From assembly GCF_963921235.1 (NCBI RefSeq), contig NC_086097.1, forward strand, positions 153,886,001-153,950,000: a stretch of 64,000 nt of DNA, written 5' to 3'. This stretch comes from Mobula hypostoma (lineage: Eukaryota). Below are positions 4,705-61,167 of this stretch, one piece after another. The translations under genes were made by a program, and so were the position numbers. Numbering within the stretch: position 1 is the stretch's first letter; each line of letters opens with the position of its first letter. The notes under the pieces are model-generated. The model saw nothing but the letters and a program-made list of their open reading frames with translations. It had not been told where the DNA came from and did not search any database.

Positions 4705-6810
4705 TCAAAGTTCAAAGTAAATATATTATCAAAGTACATATTTGTCACCATATACAACTCTGCGATTCATTTACTTGTGGGCATTAATAGTAAATACAAG
4801 AAACACAATAGAATCGATGAAAGACCCCACCCAAAAAGGTGGACAAATGACCAATGTGAAAAAGACAACAAACTGAGCAAATAAAAAAGAAAGAAAAAAG
4901 AAATAATAATAACAATAATAAATAAGCAATAAATATTGAGAACATGAGGTGAAGTGTACTTGAAAGGCAGTCCATAGGTTATGGGGACAGTTGAGAGATA
5001 AGATGAGTGAGGTTGAGTGAATTTATTTGGTTCAGGTTCCTGATGGTTGAGGGGTAATATACATTCCTGAATCTGGTGTTGTGGGACCTGATACTCCTAT
5101 ACCTCCTTCCTAGTGGTAGCAGTGAGAAGAGAGCATGGCCTGGATGGTGGGGGTACTTGATGATAGATGCTGCTTTCTCGTGACAGACAATGGTGTCATC
5201 AGCAAACTTAAATATGGTATTGGAGCTGCATTTAGCCTTGCAGTCATAAGTATAATGTGAGTAGAGCAGGAGGCTAAGCACACAGCCTTGTGGGGCATCT
5301 GTGCTGATGGTAATTGTGGAAGAAATGTTGTTACCAATCTGAACTGACTGGGACCTGCAAGTGAGAAAATCAAGGATCCAGTTGTGCGAGGAATTATTGA
5401 GGCCTAGGTCTTGGAGCTTATTGATTAATTTTGAGGAGGTGATGGTGTTGAATGCCAAGCTGTAGTCAATGAAGAACATCTTGATGTAAACATCTTCACT
5501 GGCCAGATGTAACACAATTGAGTGAAGAGCCAACGAAATGGAGTCTGCTGTTGACCCGTTGTGACGGTAGGCAAAGTAGAGAAAACCCAAATTGCTTCTC
5601 AGGCAAGAATTGATATGTTTCATCACCAACCTCTGAAAGCACTTCATCATCACAGTGGATATGTGTTGCTGGGTGATAGTCATTTAGACAGGTTAACACG
5701 TTCTTCTTAGGCAATGGTATAATTGAAGCCTACTTGAAGGAGGTGGGTACCACAGACTGCCAAAGAGAGAGGTTAGAGATCTCAGTGAACACTCCAGCAT
5801 GTTGATCAGCGCAGGATCTTTAGTACTTGGCCTTGTCTGGGCTGAAGGCTTTCCAGGAGTTCACCCTCCTTGATGAGCTTGAGCTCATCTGGGAACGAAA
5901 CTTTGTTATCACCTCTGTCACTTGCTTTCACTTTGTTAGGGATGATAGAATACAAGCCCAGCTACAGCTGTCGAGCATCCTTCAATGATCCAAGTTTGGT
6001 CCAGAATTACCACTTTGTGCATAGATAGCTTTGTGGAGATTGTACCCAGGCCTCTTGTGTTTTACTTTGTCACCAGACCTGAACACCTGTGATCTGGCCC
6101 TCGGCAGATTGAGGATCTCATGGTTCATCCAGAGCTTCTGGTTGGGAAAGACTCTGAATGATTCTCTGAGGATACATTAGTCTACAACTGTTTTTATAAA
6201 GTTTGTGATAACTGTGGTGTATTTGTTCACATCTATTGATGATTCCTTGCACCCGGCCCAGTCCACCAACTTGAAATAATCCTGTAGCCATTCCACTGCC
6301 TCCTGCGACCAGCTGTTCATTGTTCTTACTTCAGGAGCCTTGGTCTTTAGCCTCTGCCTCTATGCAGATAGAAGGATGGCCAAAGGATCAGATTTCCCAA
6401 AATGTGATCTAGGAATCAAACAGTATACATTCCTTAAGGTCGTATAACAGTAGTTGAGTGTGCTGTGATTCCTGGTGATGCAGGAGATGCGTTGATAATA
6501 ATTGGGCACAGATTTCTTCAAACAAGCCTGATTGAAATCACTGATAATAATTTGAAAGTTGTTGGGGTAGGCTGTTCCTTGTTTGCTGACGGCAGCATTC
6601 AGTACCTTGAGTGCCTCCTTAACATCTGCCTTTGGCGGTATGTCAACTGCAGTTAGGATCACAGAGGAAAACTCTCCTGGTAAGTAGAACGCTTAGATGA
6701 TCCAGGTTGGGGGAACAAGAGTGTGTTAAAACAGCTGCGTCCAAGCACCAAAAGAGTTTCCATGAAACACAGATCCCGATCTTGTGCCTTCTCTGAATCA
6801 GCCGTCCTGG
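4705..6810 (-). mobile_element. Rex1/Babar LINE, decayed and internally deleted (APE and RT remnants)
   Basis: ORF 4979-5683 has FIDYSLAFNTI, APQGCVLS and KFADDT. ORF 6360-6662 has the endonuclease motifs SDFNQA and FGKSD. The RT C-terminal half is deleted just after FADDT. Confidence 0.9.
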
Positions 6811-9034: not shown

Positions 9035-9408
9035 CAAACAAGATGCTGGAAATCCAAGAAACACACACAATATTCTGGGGGAACTCAGCAGGCCAGACAG
9101 CTTCTATGGAAAAAAGTACAGTCTAAGTTTCAGGCCGAGACCCTTTGGCAGGATTGGCGAAAGAGAGAAAAGGAGCAGGTTGAAAAGCTGAGGGAGGCAG
9201 GAGAGAAATACAAGGAGATAGGTGAGACCGGAAGATTTACTTTGGCGCTGCTTCCTGCACCCATGCGGGGCTTGTTGGCTTCATCAACTTTGCCTTCAAC
9301 TTCCACCCTGCCCTCAAATTTACTCAGTTCATTTCCGATACCTCCCTCTCCTTTCTTAATCTTACTGTCTGTATCTCTGGAGACAGTTTATCTGCTAATG
9401 TCTGTTAT
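9035..9408. mobile_element. Penelope-like fragment: inverted pLTR piece (-) followed by RT C-terminal piece (+)
   Basis: 9035-9230 resembles the pLTR at 7090-7280. 9244-9408 translates as GAASCTHA..FINFAFNFHPALKFT..ISDTSLSFL.L, a PLE RT thumb-like region. Confidence 0.7.
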
Positions 9409-10980
9409 AGGTTTTCTGCGTCTGTATTTACTAAGGAAACTGGCATGAAGTCTATGGAATTGAGGGAATCAAGTAGTGAGATCATGGAAACTGTACAGAT
9501 TGAAAAGGAGGAGGTGCTTGCTGTCTTGAGGAAAATTAAAGTGGATAAATCCCCGGGACCTGACAGAGTGTTCCCTCGAACCTTGAAGGAGACTAGTGTT
9601 GAAATTGCGAGGGCCCTGGCAGAAATATTTAAAATGTCGCTGTCTACGGGTGAGGTGCCGGAGGATTGGAGAGTGGCTCATGTTGTTCCGTTGTTTAAAA
9701 AGGGATCGAAAAGTCATCCGGGAAATTATAGGCCGGTGAGTTTAACATCGGTAGTAGGTAAGTTATTGGAGGGAGTACTAAGAGACAGAATCTACAAGCA
9801 TTTGGATAGACAGGGACTTATTAAGGAGAGTCAACATGGCTTTGTGTGTGGTAGGTCATGTTTGACCAATCTATTGGAGTTTTTCGAGGAAGTTACCAGG
9901 AAAGTGGATGAAGGGAAGGCAGTGGATATTGTCTACATGGATTTCAGTAAGGCCTTTGACAAGGTCCCGCATGGGAGGTTAGTTAGAAAAATTCAGTCGC
10001 TAGGTATACATGGAGAGGTGGTAAATTGGATTAGACATTGGCTCAATGGAAGAAGCCAAAGAGTGGTAGTAGAGAATTGCTTCTCCGAGTGGAGGCCTGT
10101 GACTAGTGGTGTGCCACAGGGATCAGTGCTGGGTCCATTGTTATTTGTCATCTATATCAATGATCTGGTTGATAATGTGGTTAATTGGATCAGCAAATTT
10201 GCTGATGACACAAAGATCGGAGGTGTAGTAGACAGAGAGGAAGGTTTTCAGAGCCTGCAGAAGGACTTGGACCAGCTGAAAAAATGGGCTGACAAATGGC
10301 AGATGGAGTTTAATACTGACAAGTGTGAGGTATTGCACGTTGGAAGGACAAACCAAGGTAGAACATATAGGGTTAATGGTAAGGCACTGAGGAGTGCAGT
10401 AGAACAGAGGGATCTGGGAATACAGATACAAAATTCCCTAAAAGTGGCATCACAAGTAGATAGGGTCGTAAAGAGAGCTTTTGGTACATTGGCCTTTATT
10501 GATCAAAGTATAGAGTATAAGAGCTGGAATGTTATGATGAGGTTGTATAAGGCATTGGTGAGGCCGAATCTGGAGTATTGTGTTCAGTTTTGGTCACCAA
10601 ATTACATGAAAGATATAAATAAGGTTGAAAGAGTGCAGAGAAGGTTTACAAGGATGTTGAGAAACTCAGTTACAGAGAAAGGTTGAATAGGTTAGGACTT
10701 TATTCCCTGGAGCGTAGAAGAATGAGGGGAGATTTGATAAAGGTATATAAAATTATGATGGGTATAGATAGAGTGAATGCAAGCAGGCTTTTTCCACTGA
10801 GGCAAGGGGAGAAAAAAACCAGAGGACATGGGTTAAGGGTGAGGGGGGAAAAGTTTAAAGGGAACATTAGGGGGGTTTCTTCACACAGAGAGTGGTGGGA
10901 GTATGGAATGAGCTGCTAGATGGGTGGTAAATGTGGGTTTTTTTAAACATTTAAGAATAAATTGGACAGATACATGGATG
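9409..10980 (+). mobile_element. CR1 LINE, 5'-truncated and young
   Basis: Continuous CR1 ORF2 sequence from FSASVFTKE through LERRRMRGDLI and TRGHGL to the 3' UTR. Confidence 0.95.
9445..10686 (+). pseudogene. CR1 ORF2 reverse transcriptase domain (413-aa open frame, no endonuclease)
   Basis: KSPGPD, NYRPVSLTS, QHGF, YMDFSKAFDKV, GVPQGSVLGP, KFADDTK and LVRPNLEYCVQFW motifs. Frameshift near 10660. Confidence 0.9.
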
Positions 10981-17648: not shown

Positions 17649-20600
17649 GCAGCAGCACTGAAACCAGTAGTGGCACCAGAACCAGGAGCAGCCAGCAGCA
17701 GCAGCACCACCATGGATGGGATGAGACAACAGTGCCTGCATCTGGCAGCGGGAGGCAGAGTTTGGAGAACTTGTCAGGCGGTGAACCATTCAGCCGCATA
17801 GACTCGGAGAACGGGTGAGGAGCCAGGACTCAGTTTCGGGGAGAAGACATCCACAAATGATAAAATCAGCTGCACCCTCCTCCCCCCAGTCCCGAAACAA
17901 ATCCAGACACGTCTGTACCCGGATTGGGTGGTGCTCGGGTCAGCCTCTGTTCTCCATGTTAGGGGCAGCTGAAACTAAAACCTGGCTGTAGGTATAAAAA
18001 GCAATACCTTTTCACTTGAGAAATGGAGAGATGTCTATGGAACTAAGTGATATGGCCACTGCCTGGGGATTGCCAGGTCATGCTTGGAGCTAGTACAGGA
18101 CATGACAGTAAGCAAGCCACCGATGGTGCACTGCTGAATAGGCGGGCGGGCAACAGGAAACCCAAAAAAAGATACTGTCTGCACTCAAAATAGCCCATCA
18201 ACAGCACAGGCTGTGCCTGCTGCTGGTGTTTCTCAGCAGAGCAGTCGACTTACAACTGAGACCACTCAAGCAGTTAAGAGAAGAAAGACACGTGTGAAAT
18301 GGTCGTTAGAAGTAAACACATTTATAATGTGTGTATGTTACTGAGTAATGGAACTTAAGACTGACACGAGAGGATACAGGGACAGACTTCATTAGCAGTT
18401 TATAGCGCAACATCCCTCCATGCAAGTAAATGCACAACGAATAGCAGGTCAACATAGAGTGACAGCGAAAAAAAAACTTAATCCTTACAGACATGTTAAA
18501 TTAAATAAAACATAAAGTTGCACAAGATGTTAGAAAGAAACCAACGTAAAGACCACAACAATACTATGAAAGAAACACACCAAAGTGCTGATGAAAATAC
18601 AATTATTTCAATTGCTTCACAATCAGACGTTAACAGTAACAACACAGTTTCAGAGCCTCCACAGAATGCTGATGACAAACTCAGCTCATAGACAAGATTA
18701 TCCTAATATTTAACACCACACTAACAGAATATATGGGCATTGACCCAACAAAAAGACTCTACATACCAAAACAAAATACTTCATTAAAATTTGCAAAAAT
18801 TGTTAATACTCTCAAAAATATTATATTACCACAACAGTTAAGAAAACTTGAAGCATTTGAAGAACTACACACATTAACATACTGTGCAGCATTAACAGCA
18901 ATGCAGTGCAATGGCTCCAAAATAAAGGCACTCATTAATAGAAGCTCAAAACTGAGTAATGAGATGAGAATGCTGAAACTGTAGAAGAGATTAAAAAACA
19001 AAATTGTAAACTAAAGAGCAGAAATAGGCTGCCTAATGGAGTATAAACAAGATAACATGGGCAAGAAAGTTAAGAGAAAAGCTAAGGCAATACTGTGGAA
19101 ATACAAGATACGATCAGCCTAACAAAAGCATGATAATGTTTATAGATGCAATAAAACAAAAGCTTGGTGTATACAAAGCCAGACTAAATAGATACACGAA
19201 ATGCACCAAAGAAGACAGAATTATCAGTTCAGAAACAATGATGAAGGTTTATATAGGACATTGAAACTAAATTTGATGCACCAAAATGTCACCAACCCCA
19301 GCACAGAATGACTAACAAACACAGAGATAATGAACTTTAGGTCTAATACCTGGTCAAACGGGATGATACACAATCAAGAACCAAACAAGATTAGGGAGGG
19401 GGGAAAAAACGCACACACGCGACTGAAGAAATGCAAACACTTGAAGTTACAATGGATATGTTGAAAGAGGTTATAAAAATACCCACAAATAAAAAAGTAC
19501 TGGAAGTGATAATATTCATAATTATTGGAACTTGCCTTCATTTGTACCTATTATTCCATATCAACAACTTCCTTAAAAATTCTGAAAAAGTGCCTGAATT
19601 TTTGAAAGAACATAAAACATGTCTTTTACTTGGAGGAGGAATCAAAATATCGTCCTATTACAGGCTTACAAACTATACATAAAATCGTAACATCATGTAT
19701 CTCATAACAAATCACCACTCTCTTACATAACCACAATATATTTACAGAAGAGCAGGGAGGATGCCATAAGGGTATCAAAGGATGGAAAGCACAACTGATA
19801 ATAGATTCTGTAATTCTAAATCAAGCCTGGCAGAAAAGCAGAAATTGTTCATGTTGCTACATTGACTACCAAAAGGCATTTTGCTCTATCCCACTTAATT
19901 GTATATAAATTCTTATTGTATATAAATTATACCCAATACTTGCTAAATTCCTGCAACACTTGATGAAGCATTGGCATGCCATAATCATTGTACCTACTTA
20001 CAATCAAACAAGAACCACCACTGTTGTCAAGATAAACTGAGGCATTTTGCAAGGTGACTCTCTAAATCTACATTTTTTTTGTCTAACTTTAAACCCGCTC
20101 TCTAATTTATTGAATTGGACTAAAATTGGGTATCAAATTAAAACAACAAAATGAGCTGTACCTTAACACACCACTTATATATGGATGATTTGAAAACATA
20201 TGCTCCTTCATCAGTTAAGCTAAAACAATTCAAATAATAGAACTATTTTCAAAAGATATGAACATGAACTTTGGCCTGGCTAAATGCAGAACATTAAATA
20301 TGGTTGTGGTGCGTGTCCATCACGACTGATGAGGACCAGTGAGATCCTTAAGTGGGTGTGTTTATTATTTGTGTGTCCAGAAGTGACTGATGACTCCAAT
20401 CTGGACTAGGAAGTACCTCCCACACATGGGCAAGTGTGTGAAGGATTCTGTAGTTGAGGTGCCTGCTGCTTGTTCTTTCCACTGTTTCCTTTTACTTCAG
20501 CATTGTGATTCTTTTCAGCTTTGGTGGCACCTTTATTGAGAAGGCTGCACCACCATGAACAATTCAAGGCTGTATGTTCCCAAGAAGCGTGATTGATCTC

Positions 20601-22277
20601 AAGGGCCTTGAGCAAAATCTTGAGCGTGATCTTGAATCGTTTTCACTGACCACGGTAAGAACACTTCTCTGTGGACAGTTCCCTGAAGAACAACTGCCTG
20701 GGGAAGCAATCGTCTGACATCTTGACGACATGGCCTGTCCATCTGACTTGATGTTTCTTCAGCAATGTGTGGATTGTGGACATGTCTACTGTAGACAGCA
20801 CTTCCATATCAGAAATTCTGTCTTACCGATTGACTTCCTTGATCTTCTGTAGGTGTGACAAGTGGAAGTGGTTCAGTCTGCATGCATATTTCATGTACAC
20901 TGTTCACGTTTCACATGTGGAAAAGAGGGTGGGTACAATGACATCACAGTAGACTTCCAGCTGGGTCAGAGTAGTTCGCCTTCACCCCCAGACTGTGTCA
21001 CATAGTCTCCCAAAACTGGCACTAGCCTTGGTGATCCTGCATCTGACCTTGTCGTCAATGTGAACTGATCTTCAGAGGGTGCTGCCAAGAGACGTGAATC
21101 TGTTAACTGCCTGGAGCTGCTGGGCATTCACTGAGATGGATCGCTCCTCATAGGGTTGATCTGGGGCTGCTTGGTGCATGACTTCCTTCTTCTTGGTACT
21201 GATGGAGAGACCAAGGTTCTCAAATACAGTGGAAAATTTGTTGATGATGTCCTGCATGTTGGACTCGGAGCTTGCATTGAGAGTACAGTCGTCAGCGAAT
21301 AGGAAATCTCTCAGTACCGTCTCTTTGACGTTAGGAACGGCTTAAAACCTGCACAGGCTGAACAGCTTGCCATTCATCCTGTATTTGATGTGGATTCCAG
21401 GATCGCTGCCCCAGAATGCATCTGTCAACATTGCACTGAACATCACGCTGAAGAGGATGGGCGCCAGTGCGTATCCCTGCTTGTCCCCATTTGTGACTGA
21501 GAAAGAAACAGAATAGTCACCAACATCAAGCACACTGACATCCTGTCATGAAACTGCTTGACAATGGTGATGAATCTGCCAGGGTGACCAAATTTTGCCA
21601 TGATCTTCCATAATCCCTCTCACCTCACGGTGTCGAAGACCTTGGTAAGATCGAGAAACGTGGTGTAGAGCAGTCTGTTCTGCTCTTGGCATTTTTCCTA
21701 GAGTTGTCTCAGAGCAAAGATCATGTTGATAGTTCCTCTTCCTTTCCAGAAGCTACACTGATTTTCCCGGAGATGACTTCATTCCTGATGAGCATTTAGT
21801 CTGTTTAGCAGGATGCTGAAGAAGATTTTCCCAGCTACAGAGAGCAAAGAGATGCCTCAGTAGTTGCTGCATGCTTGGCAGTTTCCCTTCCTCTAGTACA
21901 GGTGTACAATGGATGCATATTCCATTTCTTGCAGAATCTGACCCTTCTCCCAGAAGGACTGGAAGAGCTCCATTAGTTTGCCGGTGATGAGTGAACGACC
22001 TGTTTTGCAGACCTCCGCTGGTATATCATCTGCTCCAGAAGCCTTGCCACTTGACAAATAGCCGATTGCTTTCTCGACTTCCTCTTCTTGAGGAAGACAG
22101 TCCATCTCATGGTTGATGTCCACATGATTGAGACGATCAATTGCTTTTTCATTTATGGTGGATCATCTGTTCAGCACAGATTCAAAATGCTCTGCCATCT
22201 GTCCAGAATGTTGGCCTTCTCAGTGATGAGTGAGGTGCCATCTGCACATAGGAGGCGTGAAATCCCAGAAGAGTGAG

Positions 22278-22880
22278 ATTCCTAAGGTTGTCACAGCCAG
22301 GGGTGTTAGTGGGGATAAGCTCCTACTACCTATAAAGTGCTCCAAATGGCGGGTGACCCTAACAGCCTCTGACAACCAAGTCCAACTCTTGGTCTCCAGG
22401 TGTGGCTTAGCTACTAGGCCCAGCGGAACTGTTTCTACTGCTACGAGCAGGGGCAAAGGCAGAACACTGGTGCCTCAAAACCGGTTGCTTCAGGCAGGTG
22501 GGGCTCATCAGCCTTGGACAGCAGCCCACCTGAGAGAAGAAAAACTCTGATTATAGACTTCTGCTACCTTGCAACCATACCCACCAATGGGAAAGGCTTC
22601 AGGAGTAAACCCCAAGGAAGAAATCAAGAGCCAGGATCCCTAAGGCAGTTTGATGTTGTTTACAACTTCACTCTGCCAGCCTCTGTGATGACACTGGTGC
22701 CAAGATGAGTAGACACTTGCACTTCCCTTGGACTACATCAGTGACGTGGAGAGGGGGAACCCACTGCATGGGCAACAGCCAGTTCTTCAAATCTTCCCAC
22801 GCAGTTTGCACCCTGGAGAGGGCACAGTCCACCAGAGGCACAATCCCATGATCCCTTGGGATCGATGGCTGCCTACTACT
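22278..22880 (+). mobile_element. ~600-bp non-autonomous RTE-related retroposon nested in the RTE ORF
   Basis: Interrupts VYGPQ|SSG of the host RTE, ends in (cta)n, flanked by agtgag / actgag. Confidence 0.7.
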
Positions 22881-24687
22881 ACTGAGGGCCGTACAGTATT
22901 TTGATAGCATTAAAGAATCTCCTCGAGTCACGTCTACAAGCGTAGACCTGAATCTCGTCAGTTTTTTTTGCAGAGCCAAGAAACATGCATCTTTCCAAAT
23001 GCAGGAAGGACCATTCTGATAGGCTCTGTACAGCCTGTGCCTTTCCTGTAGGACAGCTTTTATCTTCTCATCATTCTCTTCGAACCAGTCTTGGTTCTTC
23101 CTTGCTGTATGGCTGAGGACCTCAGAGGAGGCAGAATGAACACGATCTTTGAAAGCAGCCCAGTCGTCTTCTCCATCCCCTCCAAGACCAACATTGGAGA
23201 ACTGTCACTCCAGGCTTTTAACCAGGTGGTCTGCAGTAGTACCTGATTTCAGCTTGCTGATGTTGAGCTTTCTGGGCAAATTTCCTTGCCCGTGGATGTC
23301 TTTTGGGTTGAATGTGGACCTTAAGTTTGGAAACGATCAGACAGTGGTCTGTCCAGCAGTCTGCGCCACACATTGCTTTTGTTACTCTGACATCACGTCT
23401 GTCACACCTTCTGGTGATCACACAGTCAGTCAGATACCAGTGCTTAGGGCGAGGATGCAAAAAGATATCTTGTTATGGTTTGGCAGAGGAAGAGCGTGTT
23501 GGTAATGATCAGGTCATGCATGACACAGGTTTGCAGAAGGAGTTGCTGCTGCACTTGCCTACCCCATAGTGCCCTAGGACTCCATCCCAGGTATTGTGGT
23601 CTCTTCCCACTCAAGTGTTCAAATCTCCATGGACAAGGAGCTTGTCTGACCTTGGTACAGCATAATCAGCGTATCAAGCTCTCCATAGAAGTTGAATTTG
23701 GCTTCCTCTGGGTTGGTCATCACTGGGCCATAGGCGCTGATCACTGTGATGTTGCGTTTGTTCCTCAGGGGTAGTTGCACGGTCATTAGGTCATCGTTGA
23801 ATCCTTTTGGCAGACTGATCAGCTTTCGGACAGGGTGGTTCTTGATAGCAAGTCCGACTCTTGCTCTGCGACGTTTGGTGCTGCTGTGTCCACTCCACAA
23901 GAATGTGTAGCTGCCATCTGCTTCTGTCAGTTGGCCTTCGTCTGCCAGGTGAGTCTCAGAGAGAGCTGCGATGTTAATCTTGTACCTCTCCAGTTCCCTT
24001 GTCACCAAAACAGTTCTTCTCTCTGGTCTGTCAGACCTGCTGTTGTCCATTAAGGTTCACGTGTGCCAGCTGCCGATTCTGAGAGGCGTTACTTTAGTTC
24101 GATTTCTTTGATTTCAACTGCTGAAGTGGGACCCCTGCCAGCTGTGGTTTGCTGACCAGGGTTTAGTCAAGTAGATAATGTTTAACACACTGTTTCTAGC
24201 CCCTTCCTCGTACAGTGTGGTCTTGGAGAGGCCTGCTATCTCACTCAGGTGGCTATCAAGTTCCGCCTCTACGCCTGCCAGTAAAAAACAACACATTGGC
24301 CTGAGCCACCTGTGTGCTGGTCCAGGGGTGCAGCTTCCAGTGTATCCTCACCTGCTGCTTTGTTACTCGCCCATCATCTCAAGACTTGGATTTAGATGTC
24401 ATGACTTGTGTGTGAATTTGATTAAAGTGAGGGTGAGTTGCACAGGTAATCAAACTCACTCTCTCTTCCTAGTCTATCTGGATTCAGTGGCAAGACGACA
24501 GTTAAGATGACTAGAAGTAGGTCAGGATGCAGTGGATGACCAGGGTGATCTATGTTCTTGCAGTGCTCTTCCTGCCCATTGAACCAGCTGGAGGTTTCCT
24601 CCACGCAGTCCGCTGAATCCAGTCTTCACATGCTTTGGGTAGACAAGCCCAAAGTTACTGAGGGTTCAAAGTAAATCCCAATGGCTA

Positions 24688-24882
24688 CTCTCACCTGTTT
24701 TGGCCAGCCTGTTGAAGCCATTGCCCGGGATGTGGCCACTGTCACATGCGAACAGCTTACTTGGAGCCATAGGTGAGAGCTGAGTGCCGGGTGAGTACCA
24801 AAGGACAATAACCTACCTCAGAATGTATGGCAGGTCTTCACACCAGAGGTCTACCCCCCACCACCTGACACGTAAACACCCC
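24688..24882 (-). ncRNA. HDV-like self-cleaving ribozyme at the RTE 5' terminus
   Basis: Minus strand: P1 ggggtgt/acatccc, P2 ctctcacctat/acaggtgagag, P3 ggc/gcc, L3 starting tcc with GG directly after P1', a P4 hairpin, J4/2 caaa. G1 is the element boundary. Confidence 0.75.
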
Positions 24883-25597
24883 ACATTAGACATAAAGAAA
24901 GGTGCAAAAGAGCTAATAAAATACAAAATGTCATAGCAGAATACAATACAACTGATGGATGAATATGTAACAGAACTGTATCTGGGATATCAACAAGGAA
25001 AGAAAATAGATCATTGTACAATAAAGGAAAGACTTTTGAAGGAACTTACCTCAAGGCTAAGAAAATCTGCCAATAGTAAAAATATAACAAAGGCAATTAA
25101 CACTTTTGCTATAAATTATATTAATGTATTCTTTTGGCATAATATCTTGGTCTGAAACTGATCTGGAAAATTTACAAAGAAAAATAAGAACTTAAATGAC
25201 GTACAGCATTTCAGAAAACATTAAATACATTCGAATGTGCTTAGATTAACACTAGGACAGAAGGGGGAAGAGGAATAACAGACATTAAAAATCTACACAA
25301 CAGTCAGATAAAACTTCTAAGGATATACTTTCATCAACGAAAACAGGAATTAACACTCCGTGCAAGCATCTGCAGTTCCAATAAGAAGAATACACCACTT
25401 GATTTAAATGAGACCACAACCCAGAAAAATGAAAACATCATCACTATTGAAGAAAAAGTTAAACAATGGAATAGCATGACTCTCCATGGAAGACACCCCC
25501 AAGATCTGGGCAGATTAGGTGTCAACAAGGAAGCATCGAACACCTGCCTCAGAGGTGGAGACCTCTTCCCAGAAACAGAAAGGTCCCTTGTGTTGCT

Positions 25598-46711: not shown

Positions 46712-49700
46712 TCAGTGCTTGCCAGAAGCTGAAACAAGAGGTGGCCATAGTTAAAATCATATACTCTCGGTCCATGCTACAGGACTGCTTTGACGACGTC
46801 AACTGGAATATCCTTTGTGACGAAGATGTCTCCGTGTTCACGGAAGGGGTCATGAGTTTCATCCAGAAGTGCATCGAGGACGTTGTCCCCCAAAAGTCAG
46901 TCATGGTCGATCCAAACCAGAAACCGTGCATCAACAGTTCTGTGCATGTTGCACTCACCACTCAAGCTTTTGCCACCAGTAACCACCAGAAACTCAAGAA
47001 ATGCAGCAACCATCTATGCAAAGTCATCAAGGCACTGAAATGACAATACAGGGAGAAGATCCAGACACAACTCTCCACCAACAACACGTGCAGCTTATGG
47101 CAAGGTCTGCACACCATCACAGACTTCAAAGCTAAGCGCAGTGGTGTTGCCAACATCGCTGCTTCTCTCACAGATGTGCTAACTCTTTTTTACACACAGT
47201 TTGATGTCACCAACACTGAGCCCCTGAAGAGAGCTGATGAAGCAACCTGCAACTTAGTCATTTCTGAAGCTGAAGTACACAGCTGTTTCCAATGAGTGGA
47301 CAGTCCCAAAGCTATGGGACTGGATGGCACCACAAGGTGTATTCAGAATGTGTGCAGCAAAACTGACTGGCGTGTTTGCAGACATTGCTAATCTCTCCCT
47401 CTCTTAGAGTAGAGTGCCCTCCTGCTTCAAAACATCCACCATTGTCGTGTAACTAGAAAGACCAAGGTAACATTTCTGAATAACCTTGAATTCATTTCTG
47501 AATTCTGTCGCACTCATTCCAATAATAAGCAAATGCTTCGAGAGGCTGGTCAAGGATTACATCTACAGCTTGCTGCCACCCAGACTGGAGCCCCTACAAT
47601 TTACCCACCAAAACAACCGATCAACAGATGATGCAATAGCCACAGCTCTAAAAATGTTCTTACATACCAGGAGAAGAAGGATGCTTATGTGAGAATGCTG
47701 TTCTTGGACTACAGTTCAGCATTCAACACCATAGTTCCCTCCAGGGCTAACAAGAAGCTCAGAGACCTTGGCCTTCATCCTGCCTTGTGCAGCTGGATCC
47801 TGGACTTCCTGTCAGATCGCCAGCAGGTGCTAAGAGTGAGCTCCCTCATCTCTGCCCTTCTGACCCTCAACACAGGAGCCGCCTTCTTTACTCTCTGTAC
47901 ACCCAAAATAGCGTCGCCACCCACAGCTCCAATCTGCTAATTAAATTTTGAGATGATACAACATTGATTGGCCTTATTTCAAATAATATTGAGGTAGCCT
48001 ACAGAGAAGTCATCACCCTGATACAGTGGTGTCAAGAAAACAACCCCTCCCTCAATGTTACAAAAACAAGGGAGCTGATTGTGGACTACAGGAGGAATGG
48101 AGACAAGCTAACCCCTATTGACATCAATGGATCTGGGGTTGAGAGGGTAAACGGCTTTCAGTTCCTCGGTATACACATCACCGAGGATCTCACTTGGTCT
48201 GGACATACCGGCTATGTGGTGAAAAAAGCACAAGAGTGCCTCTTTCACCTCAAACAGTTGAAGAAGTTTGGCATGAGTCCCTAAATCCTAAGTACTTTCT
48301 GCAGGGGCAGAATTAATGGCATCCTGACTGCCTGGTATGGGAACGGAACTTCTACAGAGAGTGGTGCAGACAGCCCAGTGTATCTGTGAATGTGAACCCC
48401 CCACTATTCAGGAGATTTACAGTGACGGGTGCATAAAATGGGCCTAAAGGATCATTGGGGACTTGAGTCACCCCAACCACAAACTGTTCGATGTGCTATC
48501 ATCCAGGAAATGGTACCACAGCATTAAAGCCAGGACCAACAGTCTCCGGGACAGTTTTTTCCACCAGGTCACCAGACTGATTACTTTATGCTGACACAAT
48601 TATATTTCTAAGCTATATTGACTGTTCTGTTGTATATCTTAGTGTACATACCATTTATTACAAATTACAATAATTTGCACATTGCACATTCAGATGGAGA
48701 CGTAACTTCTTTGACTTCTCCAGTGCATTCAACACCATCCGCCCTGGTCTGCTGGGGGAGAAGCTGACAGCGACGCAGGTGGATGCTTCCCTGGTATTAT
48801 GGATTCTTGATTACCTGACTGGCAGACCACAGTACGTGTGCTTGCAACACTGTGTGTCCGACAGAGTGATCAGCAGCACTGGGGCTCCACAGGGGACTGT
48901 CTTGTCTCCCTTTCTCTTCACCATTTACACCTTGGACTTCAACTACTGCACAGAGTCTTGTCATCTTCAGAAGTTTTCTGATGACTCTGCCATAGTTGGA
49001 TGCATCAGCAAGGGAGATGAGGCTGAGTACAGGGCTACGGTAGGAAACTTTGTCACATGGTGTGAGCAGAATTATCTGCAGCTTAATGTGATAAAGACTA
49101 AGGAGCTGGCGGCAGACCTGAGGAGAGCTAAGGTACTGGTGATCCGTTTCCATCCAGGGGGTCAGTGTGGACATGGTGGAAGATTACAAATACCTGGGGA
49201 TACGAATTGACAATAAACTGGACTGGTCAAAGAACACAGAGGCTGTCTACAAGAAGGGTTAGAGCCATCTCTATTTCCTGAGGAGATTGAGGTCCTTTAA
49301 CGTCTGCCGGATGATGCTGAGGATGTTCTACGAGTCTGTGGTGGCCAGTGCTATGATGTTTACTGTTGCGTGCTGAGGCAGCAGGCTGAGGGTAGCAGAC
49401 ACCAACAGAATCAACAAATTCATTCGTAAGGCCAGTGATGTTGTGGGGATGGAACTGGACTCTCCGACGGTGGTGTCTGAAAAGAAGATGCTGTCCAAGT
49501 TGCATGCCATCTTGGTCAATGCCTCCCAACCACTACATAATGTACTGGTTGGGCACAGGAGTACATTCAGCCAGAGACTCATTCCACCGAGATGCAACAT
49601 AGAGCATCATAGGAAGTCATTCCTGCCTGTGGCCATCAAACTTTACAACTCCTCCCTTGGAGGGTCAGACACCCTGAGCTAATAGGCTGGTCCTGGACTT

Positions 49701-54155: not shown

Positions 54156-55980
54156 AGATTTACATTACATCTCCCTCTAAATGTGCAATGTGCAATTTAT
54201 AATAATTTATAAATATAACAAAGAAATACTGTTGCATCAGCATGAATTAAGCAGTCTGATGGCCTGGTGGAAGAAGCTGTCCTGCAAACTATTGGTCCTG
54301 GCCTTAATGCTGCGGTACCATTTCCCAGTTGGAAGAGTTTGTGGTTGGGGTGACTCGGGTCTTCAATGGCCCTTTGGGCCCTTTTTACACACCTGTCTCG
54401 TCTTTGCAAATGTCCTGAATAGTGGGAAGTTCACATCTACAGATGTGCTGGGCTGTCCGCACCACTCTTTGCAGAGTCCTGCGATTGAGGAAAGTACAGT
54501 TCCCGTACCAGGCAATGATTCAGCCAGTCAGGATGCTCTCAATCGTGTCCCTATAGAAAGTTCTTAGAGCTTGGAGGGCCAAACCAAACCTCAACCATCT
54601 GAGGTGAAACAGGTGCTGTTGTGCCTTCTTCACCACACAGCTGGTATGTACAGACCACGTGAGATCCTCTGTGATGTTTATGCCAAGGAACTTAAAGCTG
54701 TACACTCTTTCAACCCAGATCCATTGAAATCTATAGGGGCTAGCCTGTCTCCATTCTTCCTGTAGTCCACAACCAGCTCCTTTTTTTTATGACATTGAGA
54801 AAGAGGTTGTTTTCTTGACACCACTATGTCAGGGTGATGACTTCTTCCTTGTAGGCTGCCTCATTATTATTTGAGATTAAGCCAATCAGTGTAGTGTCGC
54901 TAGCAAACTTAATTAGCAGATTGGATCTGTGGGTGGAGATACAGTTATGGGTACATAGAGAGTAAATGAAGGGGCTTAGTACACTGCCCTGTGGGGCACT
55001 TTTGTTGAGGGTCAGAGGGGCAGAGGTGAGGGATCTCACTTTTAACACCTGCTGGTGATCTGACAGGAAGTCCAGGATCCAGCTACACAAAACAGGGTGA
55101 AGGCTGAGGTCTCTGAGCTTCTTGTCGAATCTGGAGGGAATTATGGTGTTGAATGCTGAACTGTAGTCCAAGAATAGCATTCTCAGATAAGCATCCCTCT
55201 TCTCCAGTTGTGTAAGGACGGTGTGTAGAGCTGTGGCTATCGCGTTGTCTGTCGATCGGTTGTGTCGGTAGGTGAATTGTAGGGGGTCCAGTGTGGGTGG
55301 CAGCATGCTGCAGATGTGATCCTTGACCAGGCTCTCAAATCATTTGCTTATTATTGAGGTGAGTGTGACAGGACACCAGTCATTCAGACATGTTACCTTG
55401 GTCTTTTTAGGTTCAAAGACAATGGTGGATGTTTTGAAGCAGGAGGGTGCTCTACACTAGGAGAGGGAGAGATTAAAAATGTCCATAATCATACCTGCCA
55501 GTTGTGTTGCGCACATCTTGAGCACTTGCTCTGGGATGCTGTCTGATCCTGCAGCCTTGCAAATGTCCACCCATTGGTAACACCTGTGTACTTCAGCCTC
55601 AGAGATGACCAAAAGACAGGCAGTCAATGCTCCCTGCTCTGCACTTGCTTCAATGCTTCAATCTCCCTCGTCGCTTTAATTGGTGAAAAATGGTAGCTTT
55701 AATCAGCAAAATGAGCCAAACATCAGCTTGTGCCCCATCCTGCAGCCTGCCTACCACACGGTTTTCAATCGCTGTCTCTGCCTCTCGGAATCCTCTCGGA
55801 GACTGCAGAGATCTGAAGCACCCAAACGATCTCCAAACAGCAAAAGTTCCAACAGTTCCAGAATCACATTCAAGACATGAAACAAATGTGAAAGACATAA
55901 AAGAAGTGAAAAATATAGTTTCATGATCTATCCAGAAGATGTTGAGCAAAGGAGTATGGTATGCAGGTGCCATCTTGACT
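54156..55980 (-). mobile_element. Rex1/Babar LINE with internal deletion, inserted in the Gypsy chromodomain
   Basis: ORF 54824-55306 has LDPLQF..NRSTD..LFLDYSSAFNT..APQG. 5' end aagatggcacc at ~55975. Gypsy YL|VN resumes briefly at ~55983. Confidence 0.9.
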
Positions 55981-60624: not shown

Positions 60625-60932
60625 TAGGTATTCTAAGGGACTGAACATACGAGTATTTGGATAGACGGGGAGTGATTAGGAATAGTCAGCATGGCTTTTT
60701 GCATGGTAGGTATTGTCTAACCAATCCTAGAGAGTTTTTCGAGAAAGTTACCAGGAAAGTTGAGAAAGGCGAGTCAGTGGATATTGTCTACATGGACTTT
60801 AGCAAGGCATTTGACAAGGTCTCACATGGGAGTTTGGTCAGGAAGGTTCAGTTACTTGGCATTCAAGATGAAGTAATAAATTGGATTAGTCATTGGTTTT
60901 ATGGGAGAAGCCAGAGAGTGGTAGTAGATGGA
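60625..60932 (+). mobile_element. CR1 RT fragment
   Basis: SQHGF..CLTN..YMDFSKAFDKV..RSQRVVVDG. Confidence 0.9.
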
Positions 60933-61167
60933 AGTTTGGTGGATCACCGAACTTGGCGAAGTGTTTGCAGACATTCCTGCTCTGATCGACTAGCCATCAT
61001 CAGTGCGCAGTTGAGGGTATTGTCTCCTCAGAATGCCAGTTTATATACTCCTCTAGGGTCCAAATGGATATTGATAAGATGTGGTGGTCTGGTTGGCTGG
61101 TTTAGCAATAGAAGATTCTGATTGGCTAACTTCAAGGGAGGTCCGTTAGAAGTGTTCTGTCTGAGAT

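Follow-up and report, generated by a model that had tools for sequence, protein, structure and literature searches.

A candidate HDV-like ribozyme with a hairpin in loop L3 at the 5' end of an RTE-type retrotransposon

A candidate HDV-like ribozyme occupies the first 195 nt of an RTE-type non-LTR retrotransposon on the minus strand of the window (the whole 64,000-nt stretch of DNA analysed here). Helices P1, P2, P3 and P1.1 form a nested double pseudoknot in the order seen in HDV-like ribozymes, P1 starts at the first base of the element, and loop L3 is extended by a hairpin (Table 1). We consider it likely that HDV-like self-cleavage at +1 frees the element RNA from host transcripts, and that the hairpin is an accessory helix tolerated by the fold. 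Release from read-through transcripts had been proposed in a preliminary description of this DNA, and the comparisons given below support it as the likely role. The interpretation as a whole is borne out in part. P1, P2, P3, the GG of P1.1 and J1/2 were all located where they had been drawn. The hairpin described as P4 (24724-24703) is present, but P4 proper spans only 24720-24705, and 24724-24721 form a G-C-A-A junction.

Table 1. Positions of the elements, of their boundaries and of the parts of the folds in the window
Feature	Position	Strand	Comment
RTE-type non-LTR retrotransposon, family A	20301..24882	-	full length, decayed, 4582 bp including the nested 604-bp insert
Target site duplication, 5' copy	24883..24892	-	10 bp; 8/10 identical to the 3' copy
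Target site duplication, 3' copy	20291..20300	-	two transitions relative to the 5' copy
Broken single ORF	20371..24083	-	APE-type endonuclease, reverse transcriptase, C-terminal zinc finger
P1, 5' strand	24876..24882	-	G24882 is the predicted cleavage site and element base 1
P1, 3' strand	24733-24727	-	pairs with 24882-24876, 7/7 including one G-U
J1/2 domain, 96 nt	24780..24875	-	closed by P1.2 in the family
P1.2	about 24873-24864 with 24791-24782	-	about 10 bp in the family; decayed in the window copy
P2, 5' strand	24769..24779	-	24769 pairs with 24699; 24770 mutated, one pair broken
P2, 3' strand	24688..24699	-	A 24699, bulged 24698, then 24697-24688
P3, 5' strand	24766..24768	-	same in six lineages; orientation reversed in family B
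P3, 3' strand	24736-24734	-	pairs with 24768-24766
L3, whole, 29 nt	24765-24737	-	7-nt canonical part and 22-nt insert
L3, canonical part, 7 nt	24759..24765	-	U20-like 24765, P1.1 cytidines 24764-24763, G25-like 24760
L3 insert, 22 nt	24737..24758	-	holds the hairpin 24756-24738
P1.1 GG	24726-24725	-	directly after the P1 3' strand
Junction J1.1/4, G-C-A-A	24724-24721	-	kept, with the GG, in A, A2, L173, L207, L226 and L178
P4	24705..24720	-	24720-24717 pair with 24708-24705
J4/2	24700..24703	-	predicted catalytic cytidine 24703
Non-autonomous family B element, 604 bp	22277..22880	+	nested in the family A copy
Family B target duplication, 5 bp	22272-22276 and 22881-22885	+	4/5 identical
Second HDV-like fold	22277..22447	+	from family B base 1; decayed in the window copy

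The window copy was scored with a relaxed HDV descriptor that was composed after this copy had been seen. Its score of 18.5 was equalled by none of 1000 dinucleotide shuffles (best 13.5). The top score among 318 400-nt tiles of the window is 14.0, and no tile contains the whole fold. A stricter descriptor, able to recover the majority sequences of the family, misses the window copy, most likely because of the substitution at 24770 at the base of P2. Compared with the family majority, this substitution breaks a pair, P1.2 is damaged, and G-U wobbles stand in place of G-C pairs in P1 and P4. The window copy is decayed, with a ribozyme that is probably weak or dead. P2 as originally drawn (24779-24769 with 24698-24688) is paired at 10 of 11 positions; the A-U pair and the bulge at its base are also seen in a metagenome relative with a normal L3 (L226).

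P1.2 was derived from folds of the family majority sequences and of the metagenome locus L207, where another sequence forms the same closing helix. P1.2-type helices of about 10 bp close J1/2 in families A, A2 and B and in L207. J1/2 also contains the family's second GGGGTGT repeat, within the 5' strand of P1.2. As it pairs there, it is not needed as a second cleavage strand, although it may act as one, given that 9 of 29 family A copies start at +7..+15. An alternative P3, giving an L3 of 9 nt, was rejected by eye, as the next strand would have no partner at the 5' end.

The fold had been claimed to start at the exact 5' base of the element. Indeed, 24882 is both the start of P1 and the boundary defined by the target site duplication. 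The 10-bp duplication was read from the flanking letters, the automatic aligner having missed it. In a public contig, 20297 is joined to 24891 with one letter between them, and the net loss of 4592 equals 4582 for the element plus 10 for the duplication. This empty-site joint is represented by one contig of depth 5.2, with a flank that is probably itself a repeat. Many contigs cover both flanks (20200-20300 and 24883-25200), so the element was probably inserted into another repeat. Reverse transcriptase-like LINE fragments are also present in the window at 9226-10686 (+), 4979-5683 (-), 48674-49210 (+), 54824-55339 (-) and 60645-61121 (+); from their motifs, we take them to be CR1-like and L2- or Rex-like.

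The ORF pieces of the window copy cover residues 2-1062 of an intact relative with 47-61% identity. They contain pieces of the Pfam domains PF03372 and PF00078 below the cut-off. In the intact relative L151 both domains are above the cut-off and are found in one frame, together with a weak zf-C2H2. Among 19 copies of family A taken at length, ORF sequence is present in four. The other 15 match only the first 430-500 bases, eight of them with a scored 3' tail within about 700 bases. Most family A members are 570-bp bipartite non-autonomous elements. The architecture of the element, with a target site duplication, a short 3' UTR and bipartite non-autonomous derivatives, fits the RTE clade, and the clade name is based on this architecture and on motifs that we take to be those of RTE elements. 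The clade is defined by a single ORF with an APE-type endonuclease and a reverse transcriptase (PMC8501958; here and below, published work is cited from the available portions of the papers), and bipartite elements are described as arising from the RTE, Ingi and R2 clades (PMC5786205).

A genome search with the 5' region of family A produced 1908 candidates, 40 of which were scored. The starts of A and A2 copies were counted in copies selected by a query downstream of the fold. In family A, 13 of 29 copies (one of which belongs to another family) start at +1..+5, and 22 start within +15. The sister family A2 is younger (about 570 bp, copies about 94% identical, 3791 search candidates), and 27 of its 29 copies start at +1..+5. 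The hairpin-less sister family D2 (23 loci, L281-L303) has the same core and a sharp 5' end, with 20 of 23 copies, selected by the core, starting at +1..+5. The ends defined by target site duplications, searched for over -4..+14, fall at -3..+5 in all 18 A2 loci scored (mode 0, seven exactly 0; 12 of the 30 loci fell out, five without a tail and seven with low scores) and at -4..+2 in 17 of the 19 scored among 30 family B loci. An upstream flank common to both copies was seen in 1 of 435 pairs in family A and in 0 of 435 pairs in both A2 and B. Full-length copies reaching upstream of ggggtgt, which the preliminary description had named as evidence against the fold, were not found in families A and A2. 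At their 5' junctions, A2 and B copies frequently have a T or an A just before +1. In several of them the target duplication and +1 are separated by 1-4 additional bases, as if added without a template.

Covariation within family A had been suggested as a structural test. It turned out to be unsuitable: the differences between copies look like post-insertion decay, mostly CpG transitions, and the signal is found only between lineages. The P1 rows of the within-family comparison are invalid, as MAFFT misaligned the 5' columns. Six lineages were compared, namely A, A2, D1, D2 and the metagenome loci L173 and L207 (protein identity to the query 65% and 54%). In P1, P2, P3 and P4, 143 of 144 cells are paired, the exception being the first pair of P1 in D1, which is represented by a single copy. 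Two-sided compensatory changes were observed in 7 of 24 pairs (P1 3/7, P2 2/10, P4 2/4), one of the seven depending on base 1 of L207, which may belong to the flank. For these counts the helices were pulled by motif, one bulged base of L173 was skipped by hand, and the MAFFT alignment was left out, as it misplaced the D sequences. A separate count by a tool on five aligned sequences without P1 gave three compensatory pairs, a number reached in 6 of 500 shuffles.

The unpaired positions are conserved as well. The U and G of L3 (position 1, 24765, and position 6, 24760) are retained in all six lineages, as are the bases of P1.1 and the J4/2 sequence C-N-R-A; the U/G signature of HDV ribozymes is described in PMC3386971. 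The purine at +1 pairs with the end of P1, as G-C in A, A2, D2 and L173, as G-U or G-C in B, and as A-U in L207. The length of P1 is 6-7 bp across the HDV-like folds considered here. BLAST with L207 as the query matches the core only (about 100 nt, 79-83%), and J1/2 does not match.

L173 and L207 were found by scanning metagenomes, which yielded 71 RTE-like loci, 46 of them with at least 200 bases upstream of the ORF. In six of these 46 leaders the fold scores above the best of 276 shuffled or reversed controls. L173 and L207 have the same core with the L3 hairpin, and L202, L241, L226 and L178 have a normal 7-nt L3. The latter folds lie upstream of the RTE-like ORFs (L202:54-148 and L226:75-229), those of L202 and L241 being without P4. 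L185 and L224 also have a fold with a normal L3; that of L185 is just below the null, and that of L224 was seen by eye only. In viral contigs, no protein relative was found, and none of 17 motif matches has the fold at the motif.

The catalytic cytidine had been placed at 24702. This assignment is rejected in favour of 24703. In family A there are two adjacent cytidines, both of them C in 24 of 30 copies, and thus they are indistinguishable within the family. The sister families keep only the first C (A2 29/30, D1 7/7, D2 22/23, where one row is unmatched), the second position being U, G or A in these families and U in 30 of 30 in A2. The first C is preceded by G-G after P4, and a G-C-A-A junction lies before P4. 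The genomic HDV ribozyme has the same arrangement, with G40 in contact with G74 (bioRxiv 2022.09.22.508989). Conservation in the sister families and this match to genomic HDV make 24703 the predicted catalytic base, and J4/2 then reads C-N-R-A, as in the published descriptor (PMC4870747), with C24703 as its first position. A change at 24702 would probably leave cleavage intact.

The L3 hairpin had been described as atypical and likely to be missed by standard descriptors, and the comparison agrees. In the hairpin-bearing lineages L3 is 26-29 nt long, and family A has a J1/2 of about 95 nt. The published descriptor, in the supplement to PMC4870747, has a fixed L3 of 7 nt (T-Y-Y-H-C-G-Y) and allows J1/2 no more than about 50 nt, and each of these limits would cause it to miss the fold. 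It also requires C as the fifth base of L3, where A, D2, L173 and L207 have an A. The 22-nt insert is present in A, A2, L173 and L207. D1 and D2, two families of this genome, share the core of family A but lack the insert, their L3 being of the normal 7 nt. In D2 the complete L3 is UCCAAG plus C or U and equals the first seven L3 bases of A; the hairpin follows this seventh base and precedes the P3 3' strand. The five outer pairs of the hairpin are retained in A, A2, L173 and L207, while the length and sequence of its loop differ. Hairpins at the same spot are found in the two metagenome RTEs and, with a different sequence, in family B. In the A-type lineages the hairpin has no two-sided compensatory change, only one-sided changes from U-A to U-G, and its folding energy (z -0.4 to -1.5) is not better than that of shuffles. 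For the antigenomic HDV ribozyme, the seventh base of L3 is described as flexible or bulged and as one of the least conserved bases of this loop (PMC3386971). By analogy, a helix could exit the core at this base and spare the U-G pair. We infer that the hairpin is an accessory helix that is tolerated or mildly useful and not required.

In an endonuclease tree (FastTree, 49 rows, midpoint root, many weak nodes), L207, which has the hairpin, groups with L226, which has none, far from family A. L178, also without the hairpin, is found among A2 and C. Hairpin folds are scattered over this tree, a hint that the 5' module may have been gained, lost or swapped.

We found no report of an L3 hairpin in the literature on HDV-like ribozymes. 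This is provisional, as Ruminski 2011, Webb 2009 and Webb and Luptak 2011 may bear on it. No such hairpin is described in the available portions of PMC5786205, PMC6765202, PMC8501958, PMC4908430, PMC3386971, PMC4870747, bioRxiv 2022.09.22.508989, PMC3774820, PMC9901934, PMC4035085, PMC13708176 and PMC10879173.

The second HDV-like fold, in family B, has the same topology as the A-type fold and a different sequence. It has a 6-bp P1, a CPEB3-like L3 core and no P4, and its L3 contains a 7-bp hairpin insert (22404-22420) in the same place as the A-type hairpin. A genome search for family B gave 4486 candidates. Subfamily B2 has 1283 exact motif matches, compared with 0 in the control. Between B1 and B2 there is a compensatory change in P2 and a change from U-G to U-A in the L3 hairpin. 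No autonomous partner was found in 30 B1 or 25 B2 loci. L310, L313 and L317 are single B2 copies with deletions that take most of the L3 hairpin and probably occurred after insertion.

Families C and D1 serve as natural controls. Family C is young (loci 91-97% identical, some ORFs near-complete) and has lost the fold. Its 22 loci start at 18 different positions across 740 nt of a reference, and one position that is shared marks the joint with another leader. By contrast, of the 6 A/A2 loci in this sample, which was picked by protein, 5 begin at +1 or +2. Some members of family C retain only the 3' half of the fold, fused to G+C-rich leaders. In L098, L110 and L118 a captured G+C-rich leader upstream of the ORF contains a stretch similar to methylmalonyl-CoA epimerase (L110:340-498; Pfam PF13669, E 4e-7; PDB 3rmu, E 9e-13), and in L103, L111, L120 and L093 a different leader is fused to the 3' half of the ribozyme. 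In D1 (L274-L280) the first P1 bases are missing in five of seven copies, and these five share an upstream pyrimidine-rich tandem-repeat leader of variable length. The two copies with an intact P1 strand have unique flanks, and the leader is absent. The patterns in C and D1 fit a ribozyme-defined start. They are also compatible with ancestors that had been truncated at the 5' end and inserted behind a host promoter.

HDV-like ribozymes at the 5' ends of RTE elements are known, RTE families have been predicted to carry them (PMC5786205; PMC6765202), and release of a LINE by a ribozyme is not new in principle. The RTE-type HDV-like ribozymes (Ruminski et al. 2011, as cited in PMC5786205 and PMC6765202) share with family A the position at the first base, the RTE-type host element, bipartite derivatives that keep the 5' end, and a proposed release from co-transcripts. 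Family A differs from them in the 22-nt L3 insert and in its host, which is probably a vertebrate. The drz-Agam-2-1 ribozyme of a mosquito (Webb et al. 2016, PMC4908430) has a similarly large, structured J1/2 that P1.2 closes, and it shares the short linkers and the long P2 (12 bp versus 10-11 bp in family A), and P1.2 with the long P2 of the family matches its P1.2 pinch. However, the available text of that paper discusses a peripheral domain only in J1/2 and does not mention an L3 insert. The genomic HDV ribozyme shares the 7-bp P1, the 3-bp P3, the two-pair P1.1, the G-C-A-A before P4 and the G before the catalytic C. Family A differs from it in the first pair (G-C, not G-U), in the length of L3 (26-29 nt, not 8), in a J1/2 of about 95 nt and in one bulge at the base of P2. 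The CPEB3 ribozyme shares with family B the type of L3 core (U-U-C-A-C-G-U) and a one-pair P1.1 with U-U, whereas family B has a 6-bp P1, no P4 and an L3 hairpin insert, and its fold stands at the start of a retroelement. R2 ribozymes (Eickbush et al. 2013, PMC3774820) similarly fix the 5' end of a non-LTR element, and a long J1/2 or a missing P4 occur among them, but the R2 element is site-specific and L3 is short and conserved. Finally, Perere-3 (Liu et al. 2021, PMC8501958) is an RTE whose 5' end is also fixed by a ribozyme, which is a T-variant twister and not an HDV fold.

In active ancestors of the family, host read-through transcription would copy the first 195 nt of the element into RNA. 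This RNA would fold as an HDV-type nested double pseudoknot, in which C24703 would act as the catalytic base for a cut immediately 5' of G+1. Once released, the RNA would serve from +1 onwards as the template for target-primed reverse transcription and, because it starts at +1, new copies would start there as well, regardless of the flank of their parent. No RNA run was listed as containing the sequence. The L3 hairpin, which follows the seventh base of L3, where the loop is least constrained, would point away from the active site.

A sharp start at +1 also fits an internal promoter that begins transcription there, in which case the fold would be non-cutting or too slow and kept for another job, for instance to shield the uncapped end, to start translation or to bind the RTE protein. 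There are precedents: HDV-like folds have been proposed to act in an IRES-like manner and to bind proteins (PMC6765202) and to protect 5' ends (PMC13708176), and trypanosome Pr77 is described as both a promoter and a ribozyme (PMC3383444). Nevertheless, we consider a promoter unlikely to be the explanation. The catalytic C, the U and G of L3 and the A of J4/2 are constant in six lineages while the helices vary, and a purely structural role would not require this constancy. Moreover, P1 starts at the copy-start base in families with different P1 sequences. It is also quite improbable that the core is active only in the hairpin-less relatives, the insert crippling it and +1 being inherited from an ancestor or from a promoter-adjacent parent. 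Such a reading would agree with an L3 of 7 or 8 nt in the ribozymes described in the available literature, with the unremarkable stability of the hairpin, and with family A being richer in starts at +7..+15. However, the hairpin-bearing A2 and B are abundant, as judged by search candidates, and as sharp at +1 as D2, and the hairpin core with its compensatory changes persists in the diverged L173 and L207.

Finally, the pairings could be chance features of a G+C-rich 5' UTR, given that the descriptor used in the shuffle test was relaxed after the copy had been seen. A match to Rfam HDV families was also absent, from the fold region, from the genome (84 of 46579 candidates scored) and from ten loci. 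However, this blank is not caused by the hairpin alone, as five relatives with a normal L3 are unmatched too, and thus it carries little weight. The compensatory changes in P1, P2 and P4 largely refute a chance origin, and the shuffles and the same topology of family B with another sequence further argue against it, leaving it very improbable. Self-cleavage at +1 by an HDV-like fold with a tolerated L3 helix is the reading that we prefer.

We also advance, as possible though not yet probable, that HDV-like ribozymes with the L3 hairpin form a hitherto undescribed structural subclass that is catalytically active. It would have originated two or more times, in the A-type and in the B-type fold, in one and the same position of the loop. 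It would move between RTE lineages as a swappable 5' module, present in thousands of copies per genome and invisible to fixed-L3 descriptors, and its extra helix would have a job of its own, for instance tuning of the cleavage rate or docking of the RTE protein. For HDV-like ribozymes, the length of L3 is generally taken to be a constant 7-8 nt, and the published descriptor hard-codes 7 nt. A natural helix at this place means that HDV-like ribozymes in animal genomes are undercounted. It also makes L3 a new place at which modules could be attached to a ribozyme in wide use as a tool, and A2 and D2 form a matched natural pair, with and without the hairpin, in which its effect is directly testable. 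RTE elements are under development as gene-insertion tools (PMC13708176), so the formation of their 5' ends is of practical use. If this reading is true, the series found in this genome, with the hairpin present, the hairpin absent, P1 broken, and the ribozyme replaced by a host leader, would record how LINEs switch between ribozyme-defined and promoter-defined 5' ends.
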